A stretch of DNA of 64,000 bases from an uncultured virus (IMG/VR IMGVR_UViG_3300046340_000069) (IMGVR_UViG_3300046340_000069); one strand, 5' to 3'; positions 3,268-32,707 are shown, numbered from the stretch's first letter. Notes: generated by a model not told the origin, from the sequence alone. Made by a program: numbers and translations.

Positions 3268-3957
3268 ATGCTTTTAGAGGAATATATTCAGACGTTGAGA
3301 TATCATTCTGTACTGAATCCTAAGTTATTCACGAATAACAAATTGAAATCACAAATTAGGGATAAGTTGATTCAGATAGCTAATTTATTTGCAATAGATT
3401 GTAATATATCACAAAAACAGATAATAGACTATTATCTGGTTGGTGCTAATGCCCACTATAATTATACAGAATTGTCTGATATAGATGTACATATAATTAT
3501 TGATTTTAGAACAATCAATGGTGGCGATATCGATCTTGCAGATTACTATAAAGATAAGAAAGAATTATTTACAGATAATCACACTATTACTATAGAAGGG
3601 TATCCAGTTGAGTTATATGTACAGGATGTTTCCCAACTATCACCAAAAGGACAGGGGATTTATTCATTAACTCAAAATAAATTTTTAATTAAACCACAAC
3701 AGGTAGAGATTGATTATAATGATCCTAAACTAATTTCTAAAATAGAATCGTATATTAAGAAGATTGATAATACAGACAGTATAGAAGAAATGCGAAAATT
3801 AAAAACTAAATTAAAGAATATGAGAACAATTGGATTGACGAGAGTAGGGGAATTTTCTATTGAAAATTTGACAGTAAAATCTCTTAGAAATTTGGGGTAT
3901 ATTGAAAAATTACAAGATAAATATAAATCTTTACTAGATAAAGCTTTATCGATTTGA
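3268..3957 (+). CDS. Pol-beta superfamily nucleotidyltransferase
   Basis: G-A-x9-D-I-D motif (GANAHYNYTELSDID) and downstream PVELY. Confidence 0.8.
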   Translation: MLLEEYIQTLRYHSVLNPKLFTNNKLKSQIRDKLIQIANLFAIDCNISQKQIIDYYLVGANAHYNYTELSDIDVHIIIDFRTINGGDIDLADYYKDKKELFTDNHTITIEGYPVELYVQDVSQLSPKGQGIYSLTQNKFLIKPQQVEIDYNDPKLISKIESYIKKIDNTDSIEEMRKLKTKLKNMRTIGLTRVGEFSIENLTVKSLRNLGYIEKLQDKYKSLLDKALSI

Positions 3958-4009
3958 CATTTAATCAAATTAATGTTAAACTAAAACTAGTTGATTAACT
4001 TTAACAGTA

Positions 4010-4369
4010 ATGAAAAAAAGTCAAGAACACTATAATTTAGATCCTAAAGGGTATGGAAAATTTTTATCAGAAGTAGTAGAAGAATGTCATGGTTGGTTGA
4101 GTAATGTTTCTTGGGATTATATGCAGGAATGGGAGCAATTAGAATTGATAACTATTGCTACCGAGTTTATCGATTTGATGATTCGTCATATTGTAGAAAA
4201 TTTAGAATTTTCTAATGAAGAACTTGGGTATACTCTTTATGAGATTACTTATCCATATTGGTTCGATCAATATGGAGATATAGAATATGTGTGGGAAGGA
4301 TACGAAGATTGGCAAAAAGAATCATTTACATCACTAGCACAAGAATTAATGGTACTAATATCATGCTAA
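4010..4369 (+). CDS. hypothetical acidic protein
   Basis: ATG ORF behind TTGACA-17-TAAACT promoter (3954-3982). Confidence 0.7.
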   Translation: MKKSQEHYNLDPKGYGKFLSEVVEECHGWLSNVSWDYMQEWEQLELITIATEFIDLMIRHIVENLEFSNEELGYTLYEITYPYWFDQYGDIEYVWEGYEDWQKESFTSLAQELMVLISC

Positions 4370-17507: not shown

Positions 17508-18035
17508 TTGTGTTATAATGATGTTGTAATTAATATCACTAGTAGATTTGATATAAGGACAAATGGGCAAAATGTAAAAATCTATGAACTAGTATATGGA
17601 GAAAAGACTAATCAAAACTATGTACTCAATCATTTAGATGACAATCCTAATAATAATAAGCTATGTAATCTAGAATTAGTCACTAATTGGTTCAACTCAT
17701 CAATACAGAAGAAGTCATCTGGACTAGATATTGGTATAAACTATAATCGTGATAATCGTGTTGGCAGTTATCAAACAAAAATTGCTATGCCAAGAGTAAA
17801 TGGTAAGAGAATAACTTTTGGTTCACAATCTATTGATTATCTACAAAACTTACATTTCCAATTTGGAGTAAAGTCAGGATTAGTGTCTTCTGAACGATAC
17901 TTACAAGAAGTACCTAATTGGTTGCCAGATCTAACTATCCAATTCAAACCAGAACATCAGATCAAACTAGAACTACTAATTGAAGCACACATAGAGAATC
18001 AACTTACTTGGGATAAGCCGATTAGGTTGGCATAA
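17508..18035 (+). pseudogene. N-terminally deleted HNH-AP2 endonuclease (paralog of 48958-49653)
   Basis: NHLDDNPNNNKLCNLELVTNWFN...ENQLTWDKPI; no good start, the predicted start overlaps the family's TGTGTTATAAT promoter. Confidence 0.75.
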
Positions 18036-18557: not shown

Positions 18558-21500
18558 ATGCAAGTATTTAAAAGAGATGGCAGCATAGAACCATTAGATC
18601 TAGAAAAGATTCATACAATGGTATTTCGTGCATGTGAAGGGGTTGACGATGTGTCCCCTTCATTAGTAGTAATGAATAGTAAAATTCAATTAACAGATGG
18701 GATTGCTACAGAATATATTCAAAATCTATTAGTGACATCTGCTAATAATTTAATTACTATCGAAGAACCAAACTATCAGTACGTGGCAGCACGACTACTA
18801 CTATTTGGACTATATAAATCTTTATATCCACAGTGGAAAACATTTGGGTTAGTACATATATATCACCATATCACTAGATTCAAAAACAAGTATGATTCTA
18901 TCTTATTTGACAGTTACTCTAAAGAAGATTGGGACGTACTAAATGAAGCAATTGACCATAGTAAAGATTATAAATTTACATATGCGTCGTTACAACAATT
19001 AATTGATAAGTATCTAATTCAAGACAGATCTACTGGATTTGTATATGAGATTCCGCAGTATGCGTATATGCTGATTGCCGCCACAGTATTTCATGATTAT
19101 CCAGTAGAAACTAGATTAGCTACGGTTATAGATTACTACCATGCAATCTCCGATCATGAAATTAATCTCCCTACGCCTATTATGAGTGGCGTGAGAACTA
19201 AACAACGCAATTTTTCTAGCTGTTTTCCTGCTGGACAATTAGTGCATACAAGTACTGGATTAAAGCCAATTGAAACTATTTCCGTTGGAAATATGGTGTT
19301 GACTCATGCTGGAAGAATGATGTCAGTATTAGCTACGAATGCTAAATATTTTGAACAAAAATATGTAGCTATTGATACTTATTCTACTTTGAATGATCAA
19401 TTTGTTTCAACTGATGATCATTTAATATTTGCGGCTAAGGATGTCGGATGTATTCGTGGTTCTGAACATCGTTCTTGTATATGCAGTCAGGGTATTTATA
19501 AATATTGTGAGAAATATCCCAGACAATATTCTGAAGATTGTATTAATTTATACAAAAATGATTTATTTGAACCAAAATGGACACCAGCAAAAGAATTAGA
19601 TGATAATTATTGGGTACATGTGGCATACAATAAATCTGTAGTAAATACTGAGTATTTAATTATATCAGATATAATTGATATTGGTAGTCGATACGATATC
19701 AATGAAGAAGGATTGATACATTACAAAAGTTATAGATCTGATATATGGTATGTACCTAATAAAATTTATTTGAATGAAGAGTTATTCAGATTAATTGGGT
19801 ATTATTTGGCGGAAGGACATGCTACTGATGGTGGCAGTATGGGATTTACCTTCGGCAACAAAGATAAATATATTATTGATGATTGTGTAAATATTATTCA
19901 AAACGTATTTGGGTATACAGTAATTCCCTCTAATAATCCTTACGACAATAGTACTAAAGTTAGTATATGCTCTAAAATTATTACTAACTTGTTTATCCGG
20001 CTGTGTAGCAATAAATTTGATAAAAAGTTTATTTGTTATGAATTAATGAATGCTTCTATAGAATTACAAAAGCAATTACTGATTGGAGTAATTCGGGGAG
20101 ATGGTTGTGCGTATTCGCAGGGATTGCAGGTAGGGTTGTCTAATAAACAACTAATTTATCAATTATTTGATATATCTTTGCGATTAAAATTGTCACCAAC
20201 TATAAATGTGCAAAAATATAATGATGGTATACGCCAAGACGTGTATACTATATATTTTCCTAGAAGTGCAAATTATGATTTTATTATGGAAGTTGGTAAA
20301 GATGTACATAAAGTAAATTATACTAGTAAAACATACGCTTATGGGATATGGAAAGATGACAATTATTTTACTAAAATAAAAAGCGTTAAAATTATTAATA
20401 GTATTGACGATAATATAGTGTATGATTTACAAATTGCTGGAGATGAAAGTTTTGTAGTTTCTGGATTATCTGTACACAATTGCGCTTTACTTGATTGTGA
20501 CGATTCTACTTTATCTATATCTGCTAATAATCAAGCTACCGCTATGCTCACTGCCGCATCTAGTGGTATTGGTTTAAATGTGGGACGAATGAGGTCTATT
20601 GGTAGTAGTATCAGAAATGGTACAGTTATTCATCCTGGTATCGTCCCATTTTTGAAAATCTTTGAATCGACAGGTAAGGCATTTAGTCAGGCGGCGAGAG
20701 GTGGAAAACTAACCTGCTATTACCATATTTTCGGATACGAGATCGAAACAGTCATTCAACTCAAGAACAATCGTGCAAATGAAGTATCTTCGGTGAAGCA
20801 TCTTGATTACTGTATTTGTATTTCAGAATTGTTTTATAAGAGATTTATAAATAACCAAAATATCACACTATTCTGTAATAGTGATACACCAGGATTGTAT
20901 GATGCTTTTGGCACCCCAGCATTTGATAAATTATATGAATATTACGAGAAAAAGGATGGGGTGAGAAAGAAAGTTGTATCTATGCAAAAACTGTTTGTAG
21001 ATCTAATGGAACAACGATCTGAAACGGCGCGGATTTACATAATGAATGTCGATCATGCTAATACACATTCTCCGTACTTAGACGGAGTATATATGAGCAA
21101 CTTGTGTGTTGCCCCAGAAACATTATTACTCACCAATAAAGGATATTTGCCAATTGGTACGCTAGAAGATCAATCAGTAACGATATGGAATGGATGGGAG
21201 TGGTCTGATACGGTAGTAAGAAAAACTGGAATTGATCAGAAACTAATCAATATTAAATTCCAAGATGATAAAGGTAATATTCATAACATAGAATGTACAG
21301 AATATCATAAGTTTTTTATACAATCCCGTAATGATGTAATTGAAGTTCGTGCAAACGATTTGATTGTTGGGCAATATATTCAGAATTGGAATCCTCCAGA
21401 ATTTCTAATTGATTCTGATATAACTTTACATCAATATCATAGAGATTGGTGGGTATATAGCACACATAATATCGAAAGATTATCTGATACTTATTGTCTT

Positions 21501-21698
21501 ACCGAACCAAAAAGAAATAGAATGGTAATAAATGGGATTCTCTCTGGGCAATGTGTCGAAATCATCCAGCCAAGTCACCCAATATCCGATATCAATGATA
21601 CTGGAATTCACGAACATACTGTAGCAGTTAAGAATAATAAATTAGACGAATTTATTAAGCTATCTCAAGACAATGAGTTTCTTGAATTTCCTATCTAA
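18558..21698 (+). CDS. nrdA: class Ia ribonucleotide reductase alpha subunit, N-terminal piece, two inteins
   Basis: ATP cone (MQVFKRDG), LPTPIMSGVRT, FSS/C, SNL/C-x-E; stops before the C462-equivalent. Confidence 0.95.
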   Translation: MQVFKRDGSIEPLDLEKIHTMVFRACEGVDDVSPSLVVMNSKIQLTDGIATEYIQNLLVTSANNLITIEEPNYQYVAARLLLFGLYKSLYPQWKTFGLVHIYHHITRFKNKYDSILFDSYSKEDWDVLNEAIDHSKDYKFTYASLQQLIDKYLIQDRSTGFVYEIPQYAYMLIAATVFHDYPVETRLATVIDYYHAISDHEINLPTPIMSGVRTKQRNFSSCFPAGQLVHTSTGLKPIETISVGNMVLTHAGRMMSVLATNAKYFEQKYVAIDTYSTLNDQFVSTDDHLIFAAKDVGCIRGSEHRSCICSQGIYKYCEKYPRQYSEDCINLYKNDLFEPKWTPAKELDDNYWVHVAYNKSVVNTEYLIISDIIDIGSRYDINEEGLIHYKSYRSDIWYVPNKIYLNEELFRLIGYYLAEGHATDGGSMGFTFGNKDKYIIDDCVNIIQNVFGYTVIPSNNPYDNSTKVSICSKIITNLFIRLCSNKFDKKFICYELMNASIELQKQLLIGVIRGDGCAYSQGLQVGLSNKQLIYQLFDISLRLKLSPTINVQKYNDGIRQDVYTIYFPRSANYDFIMEVGKDVHKVNYTSKTYAYGIWKDDNYFTKIKSVKIINSIDDNIVYDLQIAGDESFVVSGLSVHNCALLDCDDSTLSISANNQATAMLTAASSGIGLNVGRMRSIGSSIRNGTVIHPGIVPFLKIFESTGKAFSQAARGGKLTCYYHIFGYEIETVIQLKNNRANEVSSVKHLDYCICISELFYKRFINNQNITLFCNSDTPGLYDAFGTPAFDKLYEYYEKKDGVRKKVVSMQKLFVDLMEQRSETARIYIMNVDHANTHSPYLDGVYMSNLCVAPETLLLTNKGYLPIGTLEDQSVTIWNGWEWSDTVVRKTGIDQKLINIKFQDDKGNIHNIECTEYHKFFIQSRNDVIEVRANDLIVGQYIQNWNPPEFLIDSDITLHQYHRDWWVYSTHNIERLSDTYCLTEPKRNRMVINGILSGQCVEIIQPSHPISDINDTGIHEHTVAVKNNKLDEFIKLSQDNEFLEFPI
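19221..20480 (+). mobile_element. intein with LAGLIDADG endonuclease (420 aa) before the C225-equivalent
   Basis: CFPAGQLV...LIGYYLAEG...IGVIRGDG...VYDL...VHN/C. Confidence 0.93.
21105..21551 (+). mobile_element. mini-intein (149 aa) ending in Gln, before the C439-equivalent
   Basis: NL/CVAPETLLLT...CTEYHKF...TYC...NGILSGQ/CVEI. Confidence 0.9.
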
Positions 21699-21765
21699 TA
21701 TCCTCTCAGACCCCTCTAGGATGCCCTACAACGTACGATAATTAAAAATATGACTACTGACATCT
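21698..21765 (+). repeat. dispersed repeat copy at the nrdA break point
   Basis: ctctcagacccctctaggatgccctacaacgtacg...aaatATGactact; supplies the start codon of the second nrdA piece. Confidence 0.8.
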
Positions 21766-22721
21766 TCCGCATAGCAACAGACCGCCAATTCGATCCTAAT
21801 ACCGAAACATTAGTAGATGATGTAAAGATAATTGACAGACTGCCACCAGGCATCACATCTTGTGTATTAGGCGCAATCAGTTGGGATAAGTTATCTGACA
21901 ACATGTCAGATAACTTTATCAAAATGAAACGATGGTGTGATTTAGAGATCAGATCATTAAATCAGATCATCGACATACAGGAATACAATATCCCTAGTAC
22001 AGAGATAGCCACTAAATCCGCAAGATATTTGGGGGTAGGGATTAATGGTTATGCAACATTTGCTGCACGATTAGGTTTATCATATAATCATAAAGAATTG
22101 TGGCAAATCACTCACGATCTTGCAGAAATGCAGATGTTTTGTCTATTATCTGCATCTAATAACTTAGCCAAAGAAGTAGGTGAATGTAAATGGTTTTATA
22201 AAACTAAATATTCACAAGGAATTCTACCTATCGATCACTACAGGAAAAGTGTAGATGATGTAGTTCCTAATAATCTTAATATGGATTGGGAAGGGTTGAG
22301 AGAATCAATTTTGATGAATGGACTCAGAAACAGTGCATTTTCTGCGGTGATGCCTGTACAATCATCTTCTGTAATTAGTAACAGTACTAATGGAATCGAA
22401 CTACCTCGCGCACCATTACAAATCATAAAGTCAAAGAATCGATTAATTCGACAAATAGTAAAAGATTTTAAAAAATTAGAAGATAATTATGAGTATTGTT
22501 GGGAAAAAAGTACAAATACAGGATATATCAATATTTGTGCCGTAATTCAAAAATTCTTCGACCAATCTATCTCAGCCAACTTGTATTACGATCCTAAATG
22601 GTTTTCAGACCAAACTATACCAATGGGTACGATGATTGGTGATGTCTTATATGCGTACAAGATGGGATTAAAAACATTGTATTATGCTAATTCAAATGAC
22701 GGTCGAGATGATTATGAATAA
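21750..22721 (+). CDS. nrdA: ribonucleotide reductase alpha subunit, second piece
   Basis: ITSCVLGAI (C462-equivalent), RYLGVG, GLRNS...MPVQSSS, QKFFDQSISAN, GLKTLYY; lacks terminal CxxC. Confidence 0.93.
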   Translation: MTTDIFRIATDRQFDPNTETLVDDVKIIDRLPPGITSCVLGAISWDKLSDNMSDNFIKMKRWCDLEIRSLNQIIDIQEYNIPSTEIATKSARYLGVGINGYATFAARLGLSYNHKELWQITHDLAEMQMFCLLSASNNLAKEVGECKWFYKTKYSQGILPIDHYRKSVDDVVPNNLNMDWEGLRESILMNGLRNSAFSAVMPVQSSSVISNSTNGIELPRAPLQIIKSKNRLIRQIVKDFKKLEDNYEYCWEKSTNTGYINICAVIQKFFDQSISANLYYDPKWFSDQTIPMGTMIGDVLYAYKMGLKTLYYANSNDGRDDYE

Positions 22722-22784
22722 TCCAGTTAAATGTGTTAAAATAGATAAATAATTAATTACCCACCAATATATAAATCAAGAACC

Positions 22785-22958
22785 ATGCCAGAACAACATC
22801 CAGAATTGCTAACCGAAATATTGCCATCACACCCATTACCAATTCCTCAGCCAGAATTGCTGACAGAAGTACTGTCCACTTCTCCACATAAACGTAAGTA
22901 TTGCACACCAATGATCATTAATGATGACACAGAAAGTTGCGAAAGTTGTAACGTTTAA
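22785..22958 (+). CDS. free-standing NrdA C-terminal CxxC redox-tail peptide (57 aa)
   Basis: Manual translation MPEQHPELLTEILPSHPLPIPQPELLTEVLSTSPHKRKYCTPMIINDDTESCESCNV; acidic-CESC-xx-stop end typical of NrdA. Confidence 0.8.
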   Translation: MPEQHPELLTEILPSHPLPIPQPELLTEVLSTSPHKRKYCTPMIINDDTESCESCNV

Positions 22959-22986
22959 AAGGTATTAGGTAATATAAATCCCACTA

Positions 22987-23014
22987 AATCCCACTAAATT
23001 TAGTGGGATTTATT
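22987..23014 (+). terminator. hairpin between nrdA tail ORF and nrdB
   Basis: aatcccactaa-at-ttagtgggatt. Confidence 0.6.
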
Positions 23015-23038
23015 AAAATTATTAAATTTAATAATAAC

Positions 23039-25102
23039 ATGTCAGTAATAAATTTAGACAACTCAATCGACTTCACGAAGCAAACTCAATTTTTCGATCA
23101 ACAATTAAATTTACAACGATACGATAAGTATAGATATCCTCTGTTACATCAACTATACAAGACTCAAAAATCATACTTTTGGAGTCCGACGGAGATAACA
23201 TTACAGAAAGACAAAATAGACTATTCAAACTTGACCGAACAAGAAAAATTTATTTACACATCCAATTTAAAATATCAAATTTTGTTAGATAGTGTGCAAT
23301 CTAGAAGTACATTGTTAGCATTTTTGCCATTTGTATCTCTACCAGAATTAGAAAAAAATATAATTATTTGGGGATTTTTTGAGACTATTCATTCGGAATC
23401 ATATACTCATATCATTGAGAATGTATATAATAAGCCATCTGAAATTTTTGATAATATTCTGAATATTCCAGAAATAGTAGAGCGAACCAAACAAGTCACT
23501 AAATATTATGATGAGTTTATTGATTTTTCTAGTAGTTGGAATACCTCTAGTATAAAGACATTATTAGTAGACGGTAATGTTACCGCTAATCAAACATTAT
23601 TAGAATTAAAACGTTCATTATATCTAGCTATAGTGAATGTGAATATCTTAGAAGGTATTAGATTTTATACATCATTCGCTTGCTCATTTGCCTTTGCAGA
23701 AAATGCTAAAATGATTGGTTCTTCTGATATTATTAGTTTAATTGCCAGAGACGAAGCATGTTATACCACTGGACATGAAGCTTTGACGGATACTGGATGG
23801 AAACTAATTGAAGATATTACAAAAGAAGATAAAGTGGCACAATACACCAACAATAATGCAGTAGAATTTGTTCACCCCACTGCTATTATTAATAAACAAT
23901 ATATTGGTGATGTATATCAATTTATAGACGATTCCGGCAGAATTGAACAAATTGTTACTGCCGATCATCGAATGGTGTGGCGTGAGTTATTTACAGGCAG
24001 AATGAAAGAATCGGTAGCAGCTACCACTAATTTTACATCAAGTAAGGCAATTGTGGTTAGTGGTATAGTTTTAGCAGGAGCAGTAGAATTAAGTCCTATA
24101 GAAATTTTAAATATATACACTGAATATTGTGGTACTGTTTTAGAAGTATTAGAACATAAATTAAAGGTGGAGTTTAATGTAAAAAATGAGACTAATTGGA
24201 GTAAATTGGGTAGATCTTTAGTTGCATTAGGAATTAGTTACGATTACTATATTACATATAAAACTGGAGTATATACCATAACTTGCGAGATACCAACAGC
24301 TTCTTTACAAAAATATTTTAGTTGGGTGAATATCCAGGGTAAGTCTACATTATGGGCACAAAATTTAATAAATTTATGTAGGGCGTTGAATGGTAACAAA
24401 TCTTGTATGTCTTCCGTTCCTGGTAAGTTTAAATTTACTATCAATCATACTAAGAGTTTGAAAAAGTTACAACAAGTGTTTGCTATTAGTAATTGGAAAA
24501 TATATCATACTCACCCGTCAAAAAAATATGTTGGGTATAATATTAACGTATTGACTACTAGAAATTCTCATATTACTTCAAAAACAGAGAAGGTTAAACA
24601 AAATTATAGTGGCAAGGTTTATTGTTTATCTGTTCCTTCTGGTGCATTTTTTGTTAGATATAATGAAAAGGTTTCAGTTGGGGGCAATTGTCATACTCGA
24701 CTTACTGAAACTATTATTAAGAATTGGCAAGCTGGTGAGGATAAAGATATTCTTAATATTATTAAAGAAGAAGAACAATTGGTATATACTATGTTTGATC
24801 TAGCAGTAGCGGCGGAAATAGAGTGGGCAGAATATCTTTTCAAAAATGGTAGTATATTGGGGTTGAATGTAGAACTATTATCACAATATATTAAATTTGT
24901 GGCGAATCGTAGACTTAAAGCGATCAATATGAAGCCACTGTATGACGATGTTTCTGTCAAGAATCCTTTGCCCTGGATCGATAATTATCTGAAGTCTTCT
25001 AATATAAGTGTCGCGCCACAAGAAACGGAGGTCTTATCATACCAAATTGGTAATATTGACAAAAATATAAGTGAAGGGCAATTCAGTAATTTTGAATTGT
25101 AA
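23039..25102 (+). CDS. nrdB: ribonucleotide reductase beta subunit with intein
   Basis: FWSPTEI, QILLDSVQ, FETIHSESY, LEGIRFY, IARDEA/CH, VAPQETE. Confidence 0.95.
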   Translation: MSVINLDNSIDFTKQTQFFDQQLNLQRYDKYRYPLLHQLYKTQKSYFWSPTEITLQKDKIDYSNLTEQEKFIYTSNLKYQILLDSVQSRSTLLAFLPFVSLPELEKNIIIWGFFETIHSESYTHIIENVYNKPSEIFDNILNIPEIVERTKQVTKYYDEFIDFSSSWNTSSIKTLLVDGNVTANQTLLELKRSLYLAIVNVNILEGIRFYTSFACSFAFAENAKMIGSSDIISLIARDEACYTTGHEALTDTGWKLIEDITKEDKVAQYTNNNAVEFVHPTAIINKQYIGDVYQFIDDSGRIEQIVTADHRMVWRELFTGRMKESVAATTNFTSSKAIVVSGIVLAGAVELSPIEILNIYTEYCGTVLEVLEHKLKVEFNVKNETNWSKLGRSLVALGISYDYYITYKTGVYTITCEIPTASLQKYFSWVNIQGKSTLWAQNLINLCRALNGNKSCMSSVPGKFKFTINHTKSLKKLQQVFAISNWKIYHTHPSKKYVGYNINVLTTRNSHITSKTEKVKQNYSGKVYCLSVPSGAFFVRYNEKVSVGGNCHTRLTETIIKNWQAGEDKDILNIIKEEEQLVYTMFDLAVAAEIEWAEYLFKNGSILGLNVELLSQYIKFVANRRLKAINMKPLYDDVSVKNPLPWIDNYLKSSNISVAPQETEVLSYQIGNIDKNISEGQFSNFEL
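23759..24688 (+). mobile_element. intein (310 aa) inside the ExxH iron-ligand motif of NrdB
   Basis: DEA/CYTTGHEALT...VTADHRM...VYCLSVP...VGGN/CH. Confidence 0.9.
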
Positions 25103-25156
25103 TTATTGTTCATAAATCACTATAGAAAAGAGCAATTATGGAGTTGCTCTGATTAA

Positions 25157-25233
25157 CATGCTCTGAGAGGGGTGTAGAATGCTGTGTAACGCACAGAAAT
25201 TATAAATAAGATTATTATTATCAAAATATAAAA
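25157..25233 (+). repeat. dispersed repeat copy with late promoter
   Basis: ctgagaggggtgtagaatgc...aacgcac...TATAAATA (25201-25208); runs into ATG 25234. Confidence 0.8.
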
Positions 25234-25695
25234 ATGATCAAAGAATTGATGAAGATCAAAGATCTAACAGAATTTGAATGCGATTGTGAAGGGGTTAGAG
25301 ACAAACTATTCAATACTCCAGAATTATTGACAATAACAGAACTGATTTATTTTTTGAGGATGTCTAATAATTTAGATTACTGGATCACTGGTACTCATTA
25401 TGCAGTGATGAAATTAGTATCTTTATTAAGAATGCTCGAACCAGTTTATGGGGTATATAAGGAACAAGATAAAGAAAAAAATAGAATTATCACTAGTATT
25501 TGTTTAAATTTTATTAGCAGCGAGAAGGGGTCATTACAGTATGCTGCATTGGATTTGGTAGAGGCTGGGATTTGTGCGGAGTATCAACCAATCGTTGATT
25601 TATTCCCCGTTATTGAGAAAATAATTATTGGTGACAGACATACCTCCAAATATGTATTATCTCATTTAAAATTAATTAAGGATTCGCATATATGA
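25234..25695 (+). CDS. hypothetical protein
   Basis: 153-aa ATG ORF. Confidence 0.7.
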   Translation: MIKELMKIKDLTEFECDCEGVRDKLFNTPELLTITELIYFLRMSNNLDYWITGTHYAVMKLVSLLRMLEPVYGVYKEQDKEKNRIITSICLNFISSEKGSLQYAALDLVEAGICAEYQPIVDLFPVIEKIIIGDRHTSKYVLSHLKLIKDSHI

Positions 25696-26255
25696 GAGAA
25701 TTAGTAGAATCAGTTAAAGTATTTTATCTACTAACAGAAAGTGGAGATAGACCACCATCCAGTGAGATAGAACACGACGAAAAGAATAAACATTTGAAAA
25801 CAAAATTAACAAAATACGCATATTCATCTAAGTATAACCACCCAAATCATTTTTCTCCAGATTATTCAGGGACATTTCATGGTGTATCTTGGAATACAGA
25901 TCATGACACTGAAAAAATGGATAAAAACCAAAAAATAGGAATTGTACAAGATGCCATACACTTACAAAAACATTTTGTAAAAAATGTAGCAAAACCTGGC
26001 GATGTGCTACGAAGTATACCAGATGAAGATGATGATGGCGAAGGTGGTAATAAACGCGGAAAACTATATCAAAAAGTTGGTTTTGGTAAATTAGGAAATA
26101 GAACTTCTCAGTATGGAATAATTAAACAACATCCTCATGACCACGATGACGAAACTAAACGAGGACAACATTATCTACATCCGTTAGAACACGAAGAAAT
26201 AGAATTGTCTCGAAAAAAATATTACGAAGAACGTGCAAAAAATGGCACCAAATGA
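25692..26255 (+). CDS. hypothetical, possible virion-internal protein
   Basis: ATGA overlap; LVE/LTE leader; NKRGKLYQKVGFG. Confidence 0.65.
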   Translation: MRELVESVKVFYLLTESGDRPPSSEIEHDEKNKHLKTKLTKYAYSSKYNHPNHFSPDYSGTFHGVSWNTDHDTEKMDKNQKIGIVQDAIHLQKHFVKNVAKPGDVLRSIPDEDDDGEGGNKRGKLYQKVGFGKLGNRTSQYGIIKQHPHDHDDETKRGQHYLHPLEHEEIELSRKKYYEERAKNGTK

Positions 26256-26291
26256 GTGCCATTTAATAATTTAAGTGCAATTGGACGCACA

Positions 26292-26717
26292 TCACCCCCC
26301 ATAAACCCAACGACGATTATCCCCTAAATCTAGATGAGTGAAAACACTACTATCACCTACGCCACCAATCCATGTTTTAGATAATTTTTCGGTTACGTCA
26401 CGAGGATTTACCCCAGAAATAATAATATCTACAGCATGTCCTTCAATATGTTTACTAAATCTAGCACCATTAACGGCACGATTAATGGCAGGTGGTCTAT
26501 ACCAACTGGTAATTGTAATAGAACGATCTTCAAAGTCCGAACGAACATCTTCCAATGCAGTAGCAATGCGTATAATGTTGCGAGTAATAGTTTCATTTTC
26601 AGGGATTCTAGTACCACCTTTGGTGGCTTCCGCCCAAGTAAAATGTGGACTTTCTAGAGATATTGGAGCATCTAATGCTACAATTTTAGATAATCCTGGT
26701 ACTTTAATTGTTTTCAT
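26292..26717 (-). CDS. peptidase M15 family cell-wall peptidase (endolysin candidate)
   Basis: ITSWYRP..N..V.GA..SKH..G.AVD...HLD zinc-peptidase motif. Confidence 0.9.
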   Translation of the reverse strand: MKTIKVPGLSKIVALDAPISLESPHFTWAEATKGGTRIPENETITRNIIRIATALEDVRSDFEDRSITITSWYRPPAINRAVNGARFSKHIEGHAVDIIISGVNPRDVTEKLSKTWIGGVGDSSVFTHLDLGDNRRWVYGG

Positions 26718-26869
26718 GAATATAAATATTATTTTTTAGTACGATATTATTTATCTCAACTAAAAAATACTTTTATCTTCACAAAATTACTAGACCTAAT
26801 ATTTCTTCAATAATCACAAGAAAAATTTGGACACACATTTAAAATAAATATTATAAATTAATTAAAAAT

Positions 26870-27229
26870 ATGAAGACCAGTTCTGGTAAGGCCAAGGGGC
26901 GTGGATTTCAGCAAGATATTAGGGATGTAATATTAGAAGCATTTCCCACACTAGAACCCGACGATGTGAAATCTACAGGTATGGGACAACAGGGCGAAGA
27001 TATACAACTCTCCCCCCAAGCCAGAAGACTTTTTCCCTATAGCATCGAAGCGAAGCGGCACGAAAAATTATCAATACCTGCGTGGTGGAGACAGACTATC
27101 ACCAATATCAAAGAAAATACTAATCCGGTATTGATCTTTAGACAGTCTAGACAGAAAGCATTGGTGGTAATAACCTTAGATCATTTTATGGAATTAGTTA
27201 AAGAAAATTACGAACTAAAAAACAGATAA
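26870..27229 (+). CDS. Holliday-junction-resolvase-like PD-(D/E)xK nuclease
   Basis: SGKAKGR.FQ, GEDI, SIEAK. Confidence 0.8.
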   Translation: MKTSSGKAKGRGFQQDIRDVILEAFPTLEPDDVKSTGMGQQGEDIQLSPQARRLFPYSIEAKRHEKLSIPAWWRQTITNIKENTNPVLIFRQSRQKALVVITLDHFMELVKENYELKNR

Positions 27230-27258
27230 ATAAAGATATAACCACTCAATAAATCATT

Positions 27259-27510
27259 ATGTCAAGCAAAGCAGAAAAGATTGTTACTATTATCGAATAT
27301 TATAAAATCAAATCAGAAACATTTCCAGCGACAGATGTAGAAGAAGTTGTTGAATTGCGTAAGCGCGTTGCCGAATTGGTGAAAGAGTCTGACGAAATCC
27401 AAGCAGTTATTGATAAATATAACAAAGAAGTAGTTGAGGTTCCAGTAGAAGTGGTAGAACCAGTCGCAGTACCACCCAATCCTTATGTCATTAAATATCC
27501 AACATTGTAG
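27259..27510 (+). CDS. hypothetical protein
   Basis: 83-aa ATG ORF, coiled coil. Confidence 0.65.
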   Translation: MSSKAEKIVTIIEYYKIKSETFPATDVEEVVELRKRVAELVKESDEIQAVIDKYNKEVVEVPVEVVEPVAVPPNPYVIKYPTL

Positions 27511-27593
27511 TGATGATAATTAATTACAATGGGGGGGGGGGTAATATCATGCTCTAGCTATCACACATCCTTTGCGGAGGATGTTTAACGAAT

Positions 27594-27718
27594 TTATTAA
27601 ATTTAATAATGACCTTCTAATTGATTTTAGAAGGTCATTATTTTTATGATTTGACACTAGTACTCATATTTATAGTTTTTGTGCGTTGTAGAGCATTTTA
27701 GCGATGTCTGGCAATACA
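27594..27718 (-). repeat. composite module: dispersed repeat + hairpin + 16-bp palindrome
   Basis: Reverse-complement repeat 27641-27718 (TATAAATA at 27667-27674, minus strand); hairpin aatgaccttctaa...ttagaaggtcatt; palindrome at 27594. Confidence 0.85.
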
Positions 27719-27761
27719 TTAATAACTGTGTTATAATGATTATATAGTTTATATTAATAAA

Positions 27762-27827
27762 ATGATTCATTACGATCCTATAGTAAATTTATATCAGGTA
27801 ACATGGGAAGCACCAATTAAATTTTAA
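27762..27827 (+). pseudogene. collapsed HNH-AP2 gene (first ~12 codons joined to last ~10)
   Basis: MIHYDPIVNLYQ-VTWEAPIKF* versus MIHFCKILNLYQ...QLTWDKPIMF*; same upstream promoter ctgtgttataatgattata. Confidence 0.8.
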
Positions 27828-27869
27828 TTTAATACTAGCCTAAATATTTGATACAAGCTGATTAAAATT

Positions 27870-28379
27870 ATGAGTATTTTATGCGATAGTAATCAATTTT
27901 TGATAGGAATCCTGATTAATCAACAACAATATGACACAATAGATGTAGATTATGTAAGAAATCAATATATTAATCGATTGCAGAATTATTCTGCACATTT
28001 CTATAATTATGGGTCAGTAATTTTATGTTTTGATAATAATAATTACTGGCGGAAGGACGTGTTTCCTTATTATAAGTATAGTAGAAAGGAAGATCGGAAA
28101 AAATCGACAATCGACTGGTCAAAAATATTTAATGACATCAATATGATTAAACAGGCATTAAAAAATACTTCATATTCCGTAATGGAAGTAGATGGTGCCG
28201 AAGCCGACGATATTATTGCAGTTATCTCAAAACACGAATATATTAATAATACTAGCACTATGATTATCTCTGGTGATAAAGATTTTGTCCAGTTATTAAA
28301 GTATCCAACAGTTAGTATTTATAATAGTCAGAAAAATATTTTATTAAAGGGAAAAATTTGTGAAAACCAATTTTTATGA
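27870..28379 (+). CDS. rnh: T4-type RNase H/5'-3' exonuclease, N-terminal part
   Basis: YWRKDVFPYYK, AEADDII, SGDKDFVQL. Confidence 0.9.
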   Translation: MSILCDSNQFLIGILINQQQYDTIDVDYVRNQYINRLQNYSAHFYNYGSVILCFDNNNYWRKDVFPYYKYSRKEDRKKSTIDWSKIFNDINMIKQALKNTSYSVMEVDGAEADDIIAVISKHEYINNTSTMIISGDKDFVQLLKYPTVSIYNSQKNILLKGKICENQFL

Positions 28380-28719
28380 TCAAGAACAATTGAGTGAACT
28401 ACTATCATTACATATAGCTAAAGGTGATCGCAGTGATGGTATACCTAATATTCATTCAGATGACAATACATTTGTTGATAAAATAAGACAGGTTCCTGTA
28501 ACCAAAAAAATTCTAAGTAAATTTCATATAGACCCTGAGCAATATTGTCAGGATTGTGATATAATAGATAATTATCGGAGAAATAAATTATTAATAGATT
28601 TCTCTATGATTCCAGACGAGATAGAACAGACTATCTTAGAGGAATACAAAAAGACTAAAAAGCCAAAATTACTAAAATCAAAAACATATGACTTCCAAAA
28701 ACATAAATCCAGCATCTAA
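28360..28719 (+). CDS. rnh: T4-type RNase H, C-terminal part (+1 frame)
   Basis: KGDRSDGIPN, NYRRNKLLIDFSMIP. Confidence 0.85.
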   Translation: MKTNFYDQEQLSELLSLHIAKGDRSDGIPNIHSDDNTFVDKIRQVPVTKKILSKFHIDPEQYCQDCDIIDNYRRNKLLIDFSMIPDEIEQTILEEYKKTKKPKLLKSKTYDFQKHKSSI

Positions 28720-29239
28720 TGATCTGCTATTCCCAGAAATATTTGCTAAAATTTCTAAAGTAGTAGGGAATAAAAAAAAAGCAGACCTAATTACAGAATT
28801 TCGCAATTCTGTTCATGGAGATGCCTTAAAAACGTTAGTATTATTGATCTATAATCATGAATTGAAATTTCGTTTACCAGAAGGAGAACCACCCTATACT
28901 CCTAATGTAGTCCCTATTGGCACCGATCATTCTCGGTTATTGGTAGAACACCGAAATTTATATCGATTTATAGTTGGTGGTGCCCCTCAACTATCTCAAA
29001 ATAAAATTGAAATGCTGTATATCGAATTATTAGAATCTCTACATGAATCAGAATCAGATCTGCTGATCCGAATTTTCAATCGGTCATTTGATACTATCTG
29101 GAAAGGTACTCGCAAGTATGTCATTCCATTTGATGCTATTAAATTAGCATTTCCTGAGATCCAATGGAAAGAACCTCCACTTAAAGAGCGATTAATTGAC
29201 GCAGAAATTATTCGAGATTACTCACCAGAATCTGTATGA
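28688..29239 (+). CDS. conserved T4-like hypothetical protein
   Basis: LPEGEPPY and LLESLH motifs; follows rnh. Confidence 0.75.
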   Translation: MTSKNINPASNDLLFPEIFAKISKVVGNKKKADLITEFRNSVHGDALKTLVLLIYNHELKFRLPEGEPPYTPNVVPIGTDHSRLLVEHRNLYRFIVGGAPQLSQNKIEMLYIELLESLHESESDLLIRIFNRSFDTIWKGTRKYVIPFDAIKLAFPEIQWKEPPLKERLIDAEIIRDYSPESV

Positions 29240-29324
29240 TTTCCTAAATTTGTGCTATAATAAAAGAAGAAAGATATAGATATCTTTCTTCTTTCCCCCA
29301 AAATTATTAATTCTAATAAAACAA

Positions 29325-30164
29325 ATGACCCCAGACTTAATGTTGGATGAATTGCTGAGAATTACTCAGTACAATAAAGATAACGGTATTGTTGATGTTA
29401 GTATATTAGCAGATAGTATTAGTGAACATGGGGATAGAATTACATCATTTTTACTGCATAGATTTGCGAAAGGGCATTGTCAAGCGGAATTGAATAAATC
29501 AAGAACTGTTGCTAATAATAGCTTTTCTTCTCGTGCGGTAAATAAACAGAAATTTATTGATAATATTGTTGCGGATTGTTATATTCCCATCTGGACATCA
29601 GATCGTCCTGGTATGGTTGGTGATATAATAGTAGATCGGAAGCAAATAGATGACTTAAATTCTTCTTACCTCACTAAGATGTATAGTGATATTGAATATA
29701 TAAAAAATAATTATAGTGGTATACACAAACAAGACACTAATTCGCAATTAGATGGTTATGCCAGAATCCCTATTATTGTAACCTCTACTAATTTCCCATA
29801 TTTCTTCAGGTTACGTTGTGCAGATGGAGTAAAGCCAGAATTTAGAAGGATTGCTTTAATTATGGAAGAATTATTTAACAATTCTTCCCCAAAATTGACT
29901 GATTGGCATCTCCCTTGGATAAAACCAGAAGAAGAGTCGATGAACTTGGGGGACAAGTTGACTATGTGTGCCGCTCGTAGTGCATGGCTGAGTTATTCCA
30001 ATCACAATAAGCAATGTTCTATAGATGCTGCTAAAAAATTAGTTGATAAGTTGATTGGGTCTAAGCACTATAGCGTTTTCGATCATGCTGCATATGTCGA
30101 TAGTGGTAGAGTTGGGGGTATATATAAAGGTTGGCGTGAACATAGACAATTAATTTTATATTAA
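29325..30164 (+). CDS. thyX: flavin-dependent thymidylate synthase (divergent)
   Basis: ILADSI, NSFSSRAV, FFRLRC...PEF, WHLP, ARSAWLSY, HYSVFDH. Confidence 0.8.
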   Translation: MTPDLMLDELLRITQYNKDNGIVDVSILADSISEHGDRITSFLLHRFAKGHCQAELNKSRTVANNSFSSRAVNKQKFIDNIVADCYIPIWTSDRPGMVGDIIVDRKQIDDLNSSYLTKMYSDIEYIKNNYSGIHKQDTNSQLDGYARIPIIVTSTNFPYFFRLRCADGVKPEFRRIALIMEELFNNSSPKLTDWHLPWIKPEEESMNLGDKLTMCAARSAWLSYSNHNKQCSIDAAKKLVDKLIGSKHYSVFDHAAYVDSGRVGGIYKGWREHRQLILY

Positions 30165-30168
30165 AAAA

Positions 30169-30372
30169 ATGGAAAATAAAGATACAACGTATGATAATCG
30201 AACAATAGAACAAAAGTTTGCTCAAATAACATTTGAAAAACAAGTGAATCAAATGAGTCACAAACAAGCACAGCAATTTTTGATATATATGCACAAAATG
30301 AATACTATCAAAGAAAACAGTTATCAGGCTATGTTAAAGCAATCTTGGTTCAAAGATTTTGTCCATGACTAA
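30169..30372 (+). CDS. nblA: phycobilisome degradation protein NblA
   Basis: IEQKF...FEKQVNQMSHKQAQQFL...KENSY..MLKQSW matches the NblA pattern. Confidence 0.9.
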   Translation: MENKDTTYDNRTIEQKFAQITFEKQVNQMSHKQAQQFLIYMHKMNTIKENSYQAMLKQSWFKDFVHD

Positions 30373-30652
30373 AAGAAGAACTATTTTTCAAGTAATATGC
30401 TTTGAACATGAATATTTGGTCGTTAGTCGTCCTTCTATGGATGAAAATGAACTGATCCGTATACTACTACACACATTGAGTGAGGAATTTAAGAATAAAG
30501 TCTCTAAGGGATTAGTAGACTGGATTGAAGGGGTATACTTTGTCGCTAAATTAGAGGATGCCGCTGGTTTTGATAAGGTATACCACATCACCAATATCGA
30601 GGAAGATATATTCCCAGTGCCTAGTTGGGAAGAACTATTTTTAAGAGGATAA
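30365..30652 (+). CDS. hypothetical protein
   Basis: ATG overlapping the nblA end. Confidence 0.65.
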   Translation: MTKRRTIFQVICFEHEYLVVSRPSMDENELIRILLHTLSEEFKNKVSKGLVDWIEGVYFVAKLEDAAGFDKVYHITNIEEDIFPVPSWEELFLRG

Positions 30653-30656
30653 AATC

Positions 30657-31496
30657 ATGACAGAAGCAGTACATTATCCATTTCCCAAGATCGCACAATT
30701 TAGAAATGTAGTAAAGTTGGCACAAAAAAACTTTGATACATTCATGCCAACCGTAGTACCTTATATTGGAAGAATTAAAACTAACGGTTCCAACTCAAGC
30801 ATTGTGATCAATAAAGATGGTAGTTTTTATGCACAATCTCGAAAAAAAATTATTCATCCAGATAATGATAATTATGAATTTGCCAAATGGGTGTTTGCTA
30901 ATATTGTAGAAATACAAGAGGTAGTAAAAAATGATATTATTAATACATTTGCTGATGTAGAAAGTGTAGTTCTATATGGAGAATGGATAGGTAATGGTGT
31001 CCAGTCTGGGGTAGCAGTATCAAAAATTCATAAAACATTCATAGTATTTTCTATCAAGGTGATATACCCCAATGAGTTAGAACATTTTTATAATAACTTT
31101 ATTGAATTTGAACCAAACCGTGAGATAGGATTGTACCATATAGACAACTTTCCAACTTACGAGATAGATGTTGATTTTAAAAATCCACAAGCAGCACAAG
31201 ATTTATTGGTACAATATACTAAAGAAGTAGAAACCCATTGCCCAGTCGGTGCATATTTTGGAGTCGATGGTATTGGTGAAGGATTAGTATTTTCACCAAA
31301 ATATGCTTATTCTCACCTTACTGATTTTGATTATGTATTTAAGTCCGTAGGGGAAAAATTTTCTGGTCTGGGTATTACTAATTATTTATCTGGGATTAAA
31401 TTGACGGCAGCAGATGAACAAAAATTAATCAATCTCTGTCTTCAAAATAATATTAAAGATTTTGATTTTTCCTTTTATGAAGACCACGTTTGTTAA
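30657..31496 (+). CDS. RNA ligase (Rnl2-like), N-terminal adenylyltransferase piece
   Basis: KTNGSN (motif I), QSR, YGEWIG, GEGLV, FKSVGEK. Confidence 0.85.
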   Translation: MTEAVHYPFPKIAQFRNVVKLAQKNFDTFMPTVVPYIGRIKTNGSNSSIVINKDGSFYAQSRKKIIHPDNDNYEFAKWVFANIVEIQEVVKNDIINTFADVESVVLYGEWIGNGVQSGVAVSKIHKTFIVFSIKVIYPNELEHFYNNFIEFEPNREIGLYHIDNFPTYEIDVDFKNPQAAQDLLVQYTKEVETHCPVGAYFGVDGIGEGLVFSPKYAYSHLTDFDYVFKSVGEKFSGLGITNYLSGIKLTAADEQKLINLCLQNNIKDFDFSFYEDHVC

Positions 31497-32238
31497 CTCT
31501 TCCGTTACTTTTAAATGAAAATCCATTGCTACCATCTTTACATCTTTTATTAATCTGATAACGGGATAATTTATCTTTGTTTAATTCTGACATCGATGCT
31601 TGGTTTGGGGAATCAAATATACCAAAAGGTGTAATAAATTCTCCAAGAGAAGTAATTTGTCTAATTAGTTGAGTGTGTTCTTTAGTTTGTGGACGAGGAA
31701 CACCTGAATATAAATCACTGAGTCTTTTGATTCCTTCTGGGGAAATATTATTAACCCCTTTTCTAGATTCACTTTGTTTTTTTCTTAATTCAACACCTTT
31801 AGGAGATTGTCTATAAATTTTAAAAGATTCTTTCATTTTAGCAACGGTACTGGGATCGTGCATTGGATTTGTTAATCTCATTGCTGCTGAGTTGGCAATT
31901 CTAGCTTGCTCAAATAACTTAGAAGATACATTTAATCTACCGGAATTACATTCACCAACTCTACTCATGCTACCAAATGCTTTTAACATTAAAAATCTTT
32001 GTCTGTTCTTGGTAAATACTTTAGATAGAATCCAATGTGCAATAAAATGTTGTCTGGCGGTAAGTTTTACTAAATTTTTAGGTTCTAATCTAAATTCAGA
32101 AAATATGCTTATTGGCAAAATATGATGATTTTCTGAGTAATCATTCAGATCTGATTTACAATTTATAATGAATTTTAAGTATCGGTTTAAATAGTGATAG
32201 TTTACCTCAAATGAATTGAATAACATTAAATAATCCAC
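31453..32238 (-). CDS. free-standing MobE-like HNH homing endonuclease inserted antisense in the RNA ligase gene
   Basis: YSENHHILP...NLVKLTARQHFIAHWIL; basic NUMOD-like C-terminus; TATAAATA on minus strand at 32275-32282. Confidence 0.88.
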   Translation of the reverse strand: MDYLMLFNSFEVNYHYLNRYLKFIINCKSDLNDYSENHHILPISIFSEFRLEPKNLVKLTARQHFIAHWILSKVFTKNRQRFLMLKAFGSMSRVGECNSGRLNVSSKLFEQARIANSAAMRLTNPMHDPSTVAKMKESFKIYRQSPKGVELRKKQSESRKGVNNISPEGIKRLSDLYSGVPRPQTKEHTQLIRQITSLGEFITPFGIFDSPNQASMSELNKDKLSRYQINKRCKDGSNGFSFKSNGRVNKRGLHKRKNQNL

Positions 32239-32302
32239 CGTGGCATTTCCCCTTTGGTTATAAAGTATTAATTATATTTATAGTAAATTAGTAGGAGAAT
32301 AT

Positions 32303-32707
32303 ATGAGATTATTAATTAAACAAAGTAATAAAGAATTTATTCTAGAAAATGTAGAATTGAATAATAATCCTCTAGCGGGGAAAGGAACTTTCTATGCTGG
32401 AAATAACGTTTCTACTATTGGTAAAGTACAAATTGAAGGAATTGAAGATATTAATGCGATGGTTACTTGGTTACTAGATACTTCATCAGAAAACCGAGTT
32501 GCACAACAACTTCGGATATTGAAAGAATTGGGAACGCCTATGGATGACATTAAATATATCAAATGTTTAATTGACGCAGTATTAGATGATATTGATTCAG
32601 ATCATAAGGATGACATTATCAGTTCAGGATTACCTAATAAAGTAATTTATGGAAAATTAACTAAAAGAATTAAAGAATATTACCAAAATACTTTGCAAAT
32701 TTGGTAA
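32303..32707 (+). CDS. RNA ligase C-terminal helical piece
   Basis: AGGAG RBS; SENRVAQ...VLDDI...GL..K...K..YY resembles the Rnl2-family C-domain. Confidence 0.72.
   Translation: MRLLIKQSNKEFILENVELNNNPLAGKGTFYAGNNVSTIGKVQIEGIEDINAMVTWLLDTSSENRVAQQLRILKELGTPMDDIKYIKCLIDAVLDDIDSDHKDDIISSGLPNKVIYGKLTKRIKEYYQNTLQIW

Follow-up and report, generated by a model that had tools for sequence, protein, structure and literature searches.

The window analyzed here, i.e., the whole 64,000-nucleotide (nt) stretch of DNA from an uncultured virus (IMG/VR IMGVR_UViG_3300046340_000069), counted from its first letter, carries two enzyme genes, one for the ribonucleotide reductase (RNR) protein NrdA and one for an RNA ligase, that are each broken into pieces bearing extra sequence at the break: a C-terminal extension ("tail") on the upstream piece and an N-terminal extension ("leader") on the downstream one, together referred to as tags. 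The window is AT-rich (G+C of 30-38%) and has the appearance of DNA from a T4-like marine phage, with an NrdA that is 46-50% identical to that of cyanophage P-SSM2 (BLASTP), and a megablast of both split regions against deposited phage records gave no match. As the sequences of both break regions are letter-identical in 4/4 separately assembled IMG/VR contigs with the same DNA, the splits are not assembly slips. Fetched loci of relatives are denoted below by L-numbers, and protein relatives by P-numbers. The NrdA break comprises the following features:

18558..21698, + strand: NrdA N-piece (NrdA-a), with the ATP-cone, the all-alpha domain and the first barrel part, holding two inteins and ending in the tail
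21606..21695, + strand: NrdA tail (C-terminal extension) of 30 amino acids (aa), after ...DINDTG and followed by TAA, of the phage Aeh1 NrdA-a tail family
21696..21749, + strand: stop codon TAA and a 51-nt spacer, with a second in-frame stop (TAG) at 21717-21719
21750..21851, + strand: NrdA leader (N-terminal extension) of 34 aa, acidic, before the conserved I-x-x-C-x-L strand (ITSC)
21750..22721, + strand: NrdA C-piece (NrdA-b), the second barrel half (Pfam PF02867 positions 224-522, E = 3e-53)

The N-piece matches Pfam PF03477, PF00317 and PF02867 (profile positions 2-213) as well as phrog_84, and behind its mini-intein follows ordinary NrdA up to ...DINDTG, where the tail begins. The active-site N-L-C-x-E strand and the next I-x-x-C-x-L strand, which has the next catalytic Cys, flank the broken loop, the same loop in which the NrdA of phage Aeh1 is broken, and the tags align with the Aeh1 tails, so the equivalence of the two positions asserted in the initial annotation of the window holds. 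The Aeh1 order of NrdA-a, then MobE, then NrdA-b was reportedly described by Friedrich et al. in 2007. In unsplit NrdA, this site is occupied by a loop of 15-18 residues in 147 of the 148 open reading frames (ORFs) found in the fetched loci, and by an unrelated 34-residue loop in the remaining one. Two unsplit relatives, L152 and P0088, carry unrelated insertions of 34 and 38 residues in the split-site loop, which therefore seems to tolerate extra sequence.

Among the 120 NrdA C-piece relatives listed out of 445 matches, a leader-type start is seen in nine (P0025-P0029, P0033, P0049, P0060, P0143), whereas twelve start with the C-part of an intein (H-N before Cys); a window-type leader also opens the C-piece at L165. 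At L013, the N-piece shares the mini-intein and bears a tail homologous to that of the window, and is separated by a 1-nt spacer from a C-piece in another frame (74-77% identical), while at L165 the tail is followed by an endonuclease gene and then by the leader. The L165 endonuclease (3455-4219, + strand) shows a weak GIY-YIG (SegE-like) N-terminal match that stays below the Pfam cut-off, and over the C-terminal 142 aa it shares 37% identity with the HNH-type MobE of Aeh1 (E = 7e-20); it looks like a swap of the nuclease domain on a shared DNA-binding part directed at the same target. An endonuclease gene is thus found between the NrdA pieces of Aeh1 and L165 but not between those of L013 or the window, where only the 51-nt spacer is seen. 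The tails of the window, L013, L165 and Aeh1 align with one another, as do their leaders. Leave-one-out hidden Markov models (HMMs) of the tail, a family of four sequences in all, recovered the window at 22.1 bits, L013 at 21.4, L165 at 15.4 and Aeh1 at 5.9 (E = 8e-4 for a one-sequence search), and those of the leader recovered 9/10 members at 7.9-47.5 bits (19.0 for the window). Proteus phage J3S, considered as a further leader-bearing case, was dismissed, as its NrdA is ordinary and unsplit and the match a BLAST extension; tblastn of the NrdA leader region against phage records returned two chance matches at E = 8. Judging by these comparisons, the window NrdA tail is homologous to that of Aeh1 NrdA-a, and the leader probably to that of Aeh1 NrdA-b; the window NrdA is a further split of the Aeh1 kind, at which the endonuclease gene has been lost and tail, spacer and leader left behind.

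That NrdA is nevertheless made as a single chain, by read-through or by ribosomal bypass of the 54-nt gap in the style of T4 gene 60, with the tags forming an internal insertion, is highly unlikely. The two ORFs do share a frame (that of the ATG at 21750), the gap is near the 50 nt of gene 60, and an ATC codon before the stop has a counterpart 66 nt downstream, but there are two in-frame stops on the way, a take-off stem-loop is absent (the region folds more weakly than its shuffles, z = +2.1), the frames of the two L013 pieces differ and just 1 nt separates them, an endonuclease gene intervenes in L165 and Aeh1, and the Aeh1 pieces are separate polypeptides according to Crona et al. (2011, PMC3045599).

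That paper is also informative on what such tags do: deletion of the Aeh1 tails lowers activity about 2000-fold and leaves the NrdA-a/NrdA-b heterodimers intact, i.e., activity and the dimer of heterodimers depend on the tails whereas NrdA-a/NrdA-b pairing does not, and they are proposed to have arrived with mobE (Crona et al. 2011, PMC3045599). Manning and Atkins (2022, bioRxiv 10.1101/2022.08.31.505936) mention, as unpublished, other MobE insertions whose extensions are conserved. By analogy, the window NrdA tags would serve the dimer of heterodimers and activity rather than the pairing of the halves. The idea, put forward in the initial annotation, of tags that "re-zip" fractured proteins is supported as far as their non-intein nature goes, but is too simple, since in Aeh1 they are dispensable for pairing. 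The window resembles Aeh1 in the place of the break, the homologous C-terminal tail and an acidic leader of the same pattern, and differs from it in lacking the endonuclease gene, in its acidic tail, in the two inteins of its N-piece and in the Cys-pair tail encoded as a third ORF.

The RNA ligase is broken in a comparable layout, although with the endonuclease gene still in place:

30657..31496, + strand: RNA ligase N-piece, made up of the nucleotidyltransferase domain as far as motif V and of the tail (PF09414, 1.1e-11; phrog_548, 1.6e-37, positions 6-234 of 341)
31365..31493, + strand: ligase tail, 43 aa, after motif V (leave-one-out HMM, 19.7 bits)
31453..32238, - strand: gene for an HNH homing endonuclease of 261 aa, running antisense to the ligase (phrog_655, 5.5e-30; phrog_12434, 1.9e-15)
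32303..32374, + strand: unique part of the ligase leader, 24 aa (leave-one-out HMM, 49.1 bits)
32375..32422, + strand: degenerate second motif V copy in the C-piece, 16 aa, resembling the motif V region of unsplit homologues
32303..32707, + strand: RNA ligase C-piece, the helical C-terminal domain (phrog_548 positions 245-331, matching only from C-piece residue 41)

A T4 Rnl2-like ligase of the PF09414 family would be expected to show nucleotidyltransferase motifs I, III, IV and V and a helical C-terminal domain. The N-piece keeps a motif V copy of its own (31338-31364), and the last 14 codons of the tail are also covered, on the opposite strand, by the 3' end of the endonuclease gene, the product of which has no Pfam match. 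The unsplit ligase P0003 is 67% identical to the window N-piece, and its residues 231-337 are 88% identical to the C-piece, aligning only from C-piece residue 25; neither tail nor leader is present in P0003, in the second unsplit homologue, P0004, or in L174. Because the unsplit ligases, just as the unsplit NrdA ORFs, lack them, the extensions at both breaks, found at the very positions initially annotated, can be considered real and specific to the split form. A search for P0003 in metagenome contigs retrieved only a distant locus (32% identical), P0145 was not found in viral contigs, and neither a comparison of the ligase with PDB sequences nor a tblastn of its C-piece against phage records gave a match.

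An exhaustive HMMER search with the C-piece (E <= 1e-3) gave 16 matches, namely the query, eight stand-alone proteins of 125-153 aa, three full-length ligases and four long unrelated proteins. The leader is common to seven of the eight stand-alone C-pieces, which align from residue 1-5 at 25-47% overall identity, while all three full-length ligases align only from residue 24-25. At both L173 and L175, the N-piece bears a conserved tail, the HNH gene runs antisense with its 3' end overlapping the end of the tail, and a C-piece is present; leave-one-out HMMs of the ligase family recover tails at 12.8-37.3 bits and leaders at 10.0-53.4 bits. The endonucleases of the window, L173 and L175 are 37-42% identical to one another (37-40% for the window against the other two) and antisense to the ligase in 3/3 loci, and their HNH part is related to Aeh1 MobE (30% identity over 92 aa, E = 2e-9, for the window endonuclease).

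A further observation comes from L174, an unsplit twin of L173 with flanks 99.0% and 99.9% identical to it: a block of 1069 base pairs (bp) in L173 (1780-2848) stands in place of 70 bp in L174 (4940-5009), and comprises, in this order, a diverged motif V copy and the tail, the endonuclease, and the leader with a second, degenerate motif V copy. In this relative, the ligase tags lie within a mobile endonuclease cassette. The initial suggestion that the tags were brought in with an endonuclease is borne out for the ligase to this extent, but its premise that both tag pairs are one module is not. As for their role, the ligase tags would presumably help to assemble the nucleotidyltransferase and C-terminal domains.

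Could the extensions simply be neutral leftovers, i.e., read-through to the first stop on one side and codons after a usable start on the other, with no role in the enzyme? The overlap of the last 14 ligase tail codons with the opposite-strand endonuclease gene would be compatible with this, as would the faster evolution of the tags in comparison to the cores (about 45% vs 77% identity between the window and L013, by eye). Such an origin is quite unlikely, however, given that both tag families (the overlapping end of the ligase tail included) are conserved among proteins that are 25-47% identical, that the NrdA tags outlast the loss of the endonuclease in the window and L013, and that in vitro the Aeh1 enzyme cannot do without its tails (Crona et al. 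2011, PMC3045599). Another candidate origin, in which each tag is a decayed duplicate of the segment neighbouring its partner, was rejected for the unique parts: one of eight pairwise comparisons matched (p = 0.017, uncorrected), and profile-profile tests, made with 22 sequences of full-length ligase and 61 of unsplit NrdA, yielded probabilities of <= 0.5%. Clear copies are confined to the 10-16 residues adjoining the junction.

The tags were initially described as being of a non-intein kind, and this agrees with what is seen: the junctions are devoid of splicing residues and no Hint/intein match is found at E-values up to 10, from which it follows that the pieces stay separate. Pfam and PHROGs searches with the tags alone, also at E up to 10, returned nothing meaningful. 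A degenerate split intein was nonetheless raised as a possible origin of the Aeh1 tags (Crona et al. 2011, PMC3045599), and the intein C-parts opening 12 of the 120 listed NrdA C-piece relatives, together with the hairpin-like beginning shared by leaders and intein C-parts (by eye), lend the idea some appeal. It is still very unlikely to be correct, as hhalign of four tag profiles against the 12 intein C-parts gave probabilities of 0.03-2.4%, splicing residues are absent, the split inteins occupy another position, the N-L-C site, which is 18 residues upstream, and 30 + 34 aa are too short for a Hint fold. Genes fractured by split inteins (Dassa et al. 2009, PMC2677866) are similar to the present ones in that free-standing endonucleases cut phage replication and nucleotide-metabolism genes, with NrdA as a frequent target, and relatives of the window NrdA with split inteins do occur (L021, L075 and L161), but the window tags differ from these in having neither splicing residues nor a Hint match.

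Structure prediction adds little on the tags. In an AlphaFold2 model of an NrdA read-through (starting after the mini-intein and running on through the whole C-piece, both stops being written as X, on a 15-row alignment), the tag region (residues 1-103) reached a predicted local distance difference test (pLDDT) score of just 25-50, and the model is therefore uninformative on the tags. The ligase leader is predicted by AlphaFold2 to be a beta-hairpin (strands at residues 3-7 and 10-14, pLDDT about 62-64), joined by a low-confidence linker to the helical domain (pLDDT about 90), for which Foldseek has the C-terminal domain of T4 Rnl2 among its top rows as a weak match (E = 2-3). A co-fold of ligase N-piece residues 222-279 (3 rows) with C-piece residues 1-45 (8 rows) scored 0.30 against a mark of 0.32, which speaks neither for nor against binding.

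Initially, the NrdA and ligase tag pairs were also suggested to resemble each other in sequence and to represent one shared module. In the ungapped alignments initially drawn, the tails share 4/23 identities, a count that 98% of 2000 shuffles reach in some register (20% reach the BLOSUM score), and the leaders 4/18, with 66% of shuffles reaching the count and 3.6% the score; gapped local alignment gave p = 0.37 when the tails were compared and p = 0.05 when the leaders were (not corrected for the six comparisons). NrdA tag profiles, which pick up left-out members of their own family at 5.9-47 bits (with the exception of the Aeh1 leader, 1.7 bits), score the ligase tags at <= 1.9 bits and rank the ligase pieces 51-59 among 799 frames of the window. 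In the other direction, ligase tag profiles give <= 2.2 bits for 14 NrdA tags and <= 1.1 bits for the T4 gp39 and gp60 extensions, and hhalign of NrdA against ligase yields probabilities of 0.5% for the tails (in a register unlike the one initially drawn) and 1.2% for the leaders. The charges do not correspond either, the NrdA leaders being acidic, most NrdA tails basic and the ligase tags near neutral.

It is therefore unlikely that both pairs go back to a single portable docking domain in two parts, moved about by homing endonucleases and strongly diverged since. Such a domain would account for the similar layouts and lengths of the pairs, the kinship of the ligase endonuclease with MobE (E = 2e-9), the marginal leader-leader signal with its constant register, and the hairpin predicted for the ligase leader, whose hydrophobic pattern the NrdA leaders match by eye. 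Against it stand the tails (p = 0.37, -0.7 bits, and an hhalign match of 0.5% in another register), the inconspicuous rank of the ligase pieces among the window frames, the dissimilar charge patterns (acidic NrdA leaders, near-neutral ligase tags), the orientation of the endonuclease (sense in Aeh1 and L165, antisense in all three ligase loci), and the failure of either family to match the gp39/gp60 extensions (<= 1.1 bits). What the two pairs have in common would be a layout and a rough length, their sequence likeness being at chance level and a common ancestry undetectable in it.

The closest parallel to the ligase cassette is arguably the MobA element that separates T4 gp39 from gp60. It is about 1.1 kilobases (kb) long, deletes 55-75 nt, and supplies a tail (about 44 aa) as well as a leader (about 45 aa) in which the displaced region is copied (Manning and Atkins 2022, bioRxiv 10.1101/2022.08.31.505936). 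In the T4 topoisomerase II, a roughly 70-aa insertion seen by electron cryomicroscopy has been called a pendant or "assembly bracket" (PMC11461880). The L173 ligase cassette is similar (~1.07 kb in place of 70 bp, a tail and a leader, diverged codon copies and a Mob-like HNH endonuclease), and the loss of the endonuclease with retention of the tails, as at the window NrdA site, also occurs in the MobA family. The differences lie in the target, a ligase; in the endonuclease, which is antisense, with converging, overlapping 3' ends, and which is neither in the same orientation nor leader-overlapping as would be expected of the MobA/MobE kind; in the absence of a bypass element; and in the lack of sequence likeness of both ligase and NrdA tags to the gp39/gp60 extensions. 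Tails of mobile elements that rescue split genes are already published for MobE/NrdA and MobA/topoisomerase II, and the ligase cassette is a further Mob-type member with a new target and an antisense endonuclease. A search of the main texts of an incomplete literature collection found no description of an endonuclease-split phage RNA ligase, and the term "RNA ligase" has 0 occurrences in the text of Dassa et al. (2009, PMC2677866). Descriptions of the split ligase cassette seem to be lacking so far.

Taken together, the two breaks are best explained, with a probability of roughly three in four, by two independent homing-endonuclease insertions, each of which split an essential or useful enzyme gene and supplied peptide extensions of its own. 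The inserted cassette would consist, in order, of replacement codons, the C-terminal extension of the upstream piece, the endonuclease gene, the N-terminal extension of the downstream piece and a second, diverged codon copy. The two pieces would then be translated separately and assembled non-covalently, and the extensions would be retained by selection because the split enzyme needs them.

Several observations sit uneasily with this explanation, or at least with parts of it. The leader-leader signal, although marginal, keeps to one register (p = 0.05, p = 0.036, hhalign E = 0.045), and an HMM of the ligase leader finds the leader of P0027 at E = 0.009 (one-sequence search). The Aeh1 leader, moreover, scores 1.7 bits against the leader profile, about the same as the ligase leader (1.9), and since it barely scores within its own family, the negative profile result is weak evidence against distant leader kinship; with the signal recurring in register and Aeh1 doing no better, such kinship may remain. 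For the ligase, N-pieces are seen for only 2/7 of the other leader-bearing C-pieces, and the borders of the window's own cassette are those suggested by protein alignment. Motif I of the ligase (30777-30794) reads K-T-N-G, against K-x-H-G in relatives (Asn for His, with the Lys kept), and motif V of the N-piece is F-K-S-V-G, against their F-K-x-K-G (Val in place of the second Lys), while the degenerate copy in the C-piece retains Lys at the second position; the window ligase may be decaying, or the motif may be shared between the pieces. Lastly, the window NrdA tail is acidic (net charge -3), just like its leader (net -3), whereas the tails of L013, L165 and Aeh1 are basic (+3 to +6), so the charge pairing proposed for Aeh1 fails in the window NrdA.

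The tail/leader pairs of the Mob-type cassettes in NrdA, RNA ligase and topoisomerase II might also all be versions of one ancient two-piece "bracket" fold that has diverged past sequence recognition. This is an unlikely reading, but were it true, a generic, portable module for non-covalent reassembly would be travelling with homing endonucleases, which could in this way invade essential genes without introns or inteins.

Apart from the two proposed insertions, the surroundings of the NrdA break contain the following features:

17508-18035, + strand: HNH_3 endonuclease-like free-standing ORF (PF13392, 8.9e-6), just upstream of nrdA
19221..20480, + strand: intein 1 of the NrdA N-piece, 420 aa, LAGLIDADG type (Pfam Hint_2, Intein_splicing, LAGLIDADG_3), with boundaries SS|C...VHN|C
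21105..21551, + strand: mini-intein 2, 149 aa, between SNL and the active-site Cys
22785-22958, + strand: third NrdA piece, a 57-aa ORF with the redox-active C-terminal tail ending C-E-S-C-N-V and a repeated E-L-L-T-E-[IV]-L motif
23003-25102, + strand: NrdB, with an intein (23759-24688, about 310 aa) in the I-A-R-D-E-A motif region

Intein 1 is inserted directly before the Cys aligned with C225 of E. coli NrdA. The mini-intein ends in Gly-Gln before the +1 Cys and not in the usual H-N or G-N, while Gly-Asn closes the same mini-intein in L013; inteins do not usually have a C-terminal Gln, which may slow or alter splicing. As the redox-tail ORF sits behind four stops after the C-piece, NrdA is encoded in three pieces; this additional split bears no tail/leader tags, and a separate redox-tail ORF is also seen in L013 (about 7030-7195, + strand), whereas the tail is fused in P0028, P0029, P0033 and L165. 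The RNR operon contains five interruptions (two NrdA inteins, the NrdB intein and two NrdA splits), and all three catalytic-Cys regions of NrdA adjoin one. A look-alike of the HNH_3 ORF occupies the same place in L013 (2686-3423, + strand; by eye).

Elsewhere in the window, a T4-type RNase H, a 5'-3' exonuclease, is found in two + strand ORFs overlapping by 20 nt (27870-28379, PF02739, and 28360-28719, PF09293), with no endonuclease gene between them; this state may be due to a frameshift or represent a third split enzyme of the window.

As for the broader meaning of the two proposed insertions, no new class of element is opened by them, and a single shared docking module is not borne out. Rather, RNA ligase can be added to the targets NrdA and topoisomerase II, the cassette being defined by the near-identical L173/L174 pair, and the Aeh1 NrdA tails gain a marine phage family, including lineages that keep the tags after the loss of the endonuclease. 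The natural tag pairs might be considered as candidates for split-protein tools. The two cases widen a theme that is already known, namely that homing endonucleases can enter essential genes without the help of an intron or intein, provided that the cassette supplies tails uniting the function of the halves.

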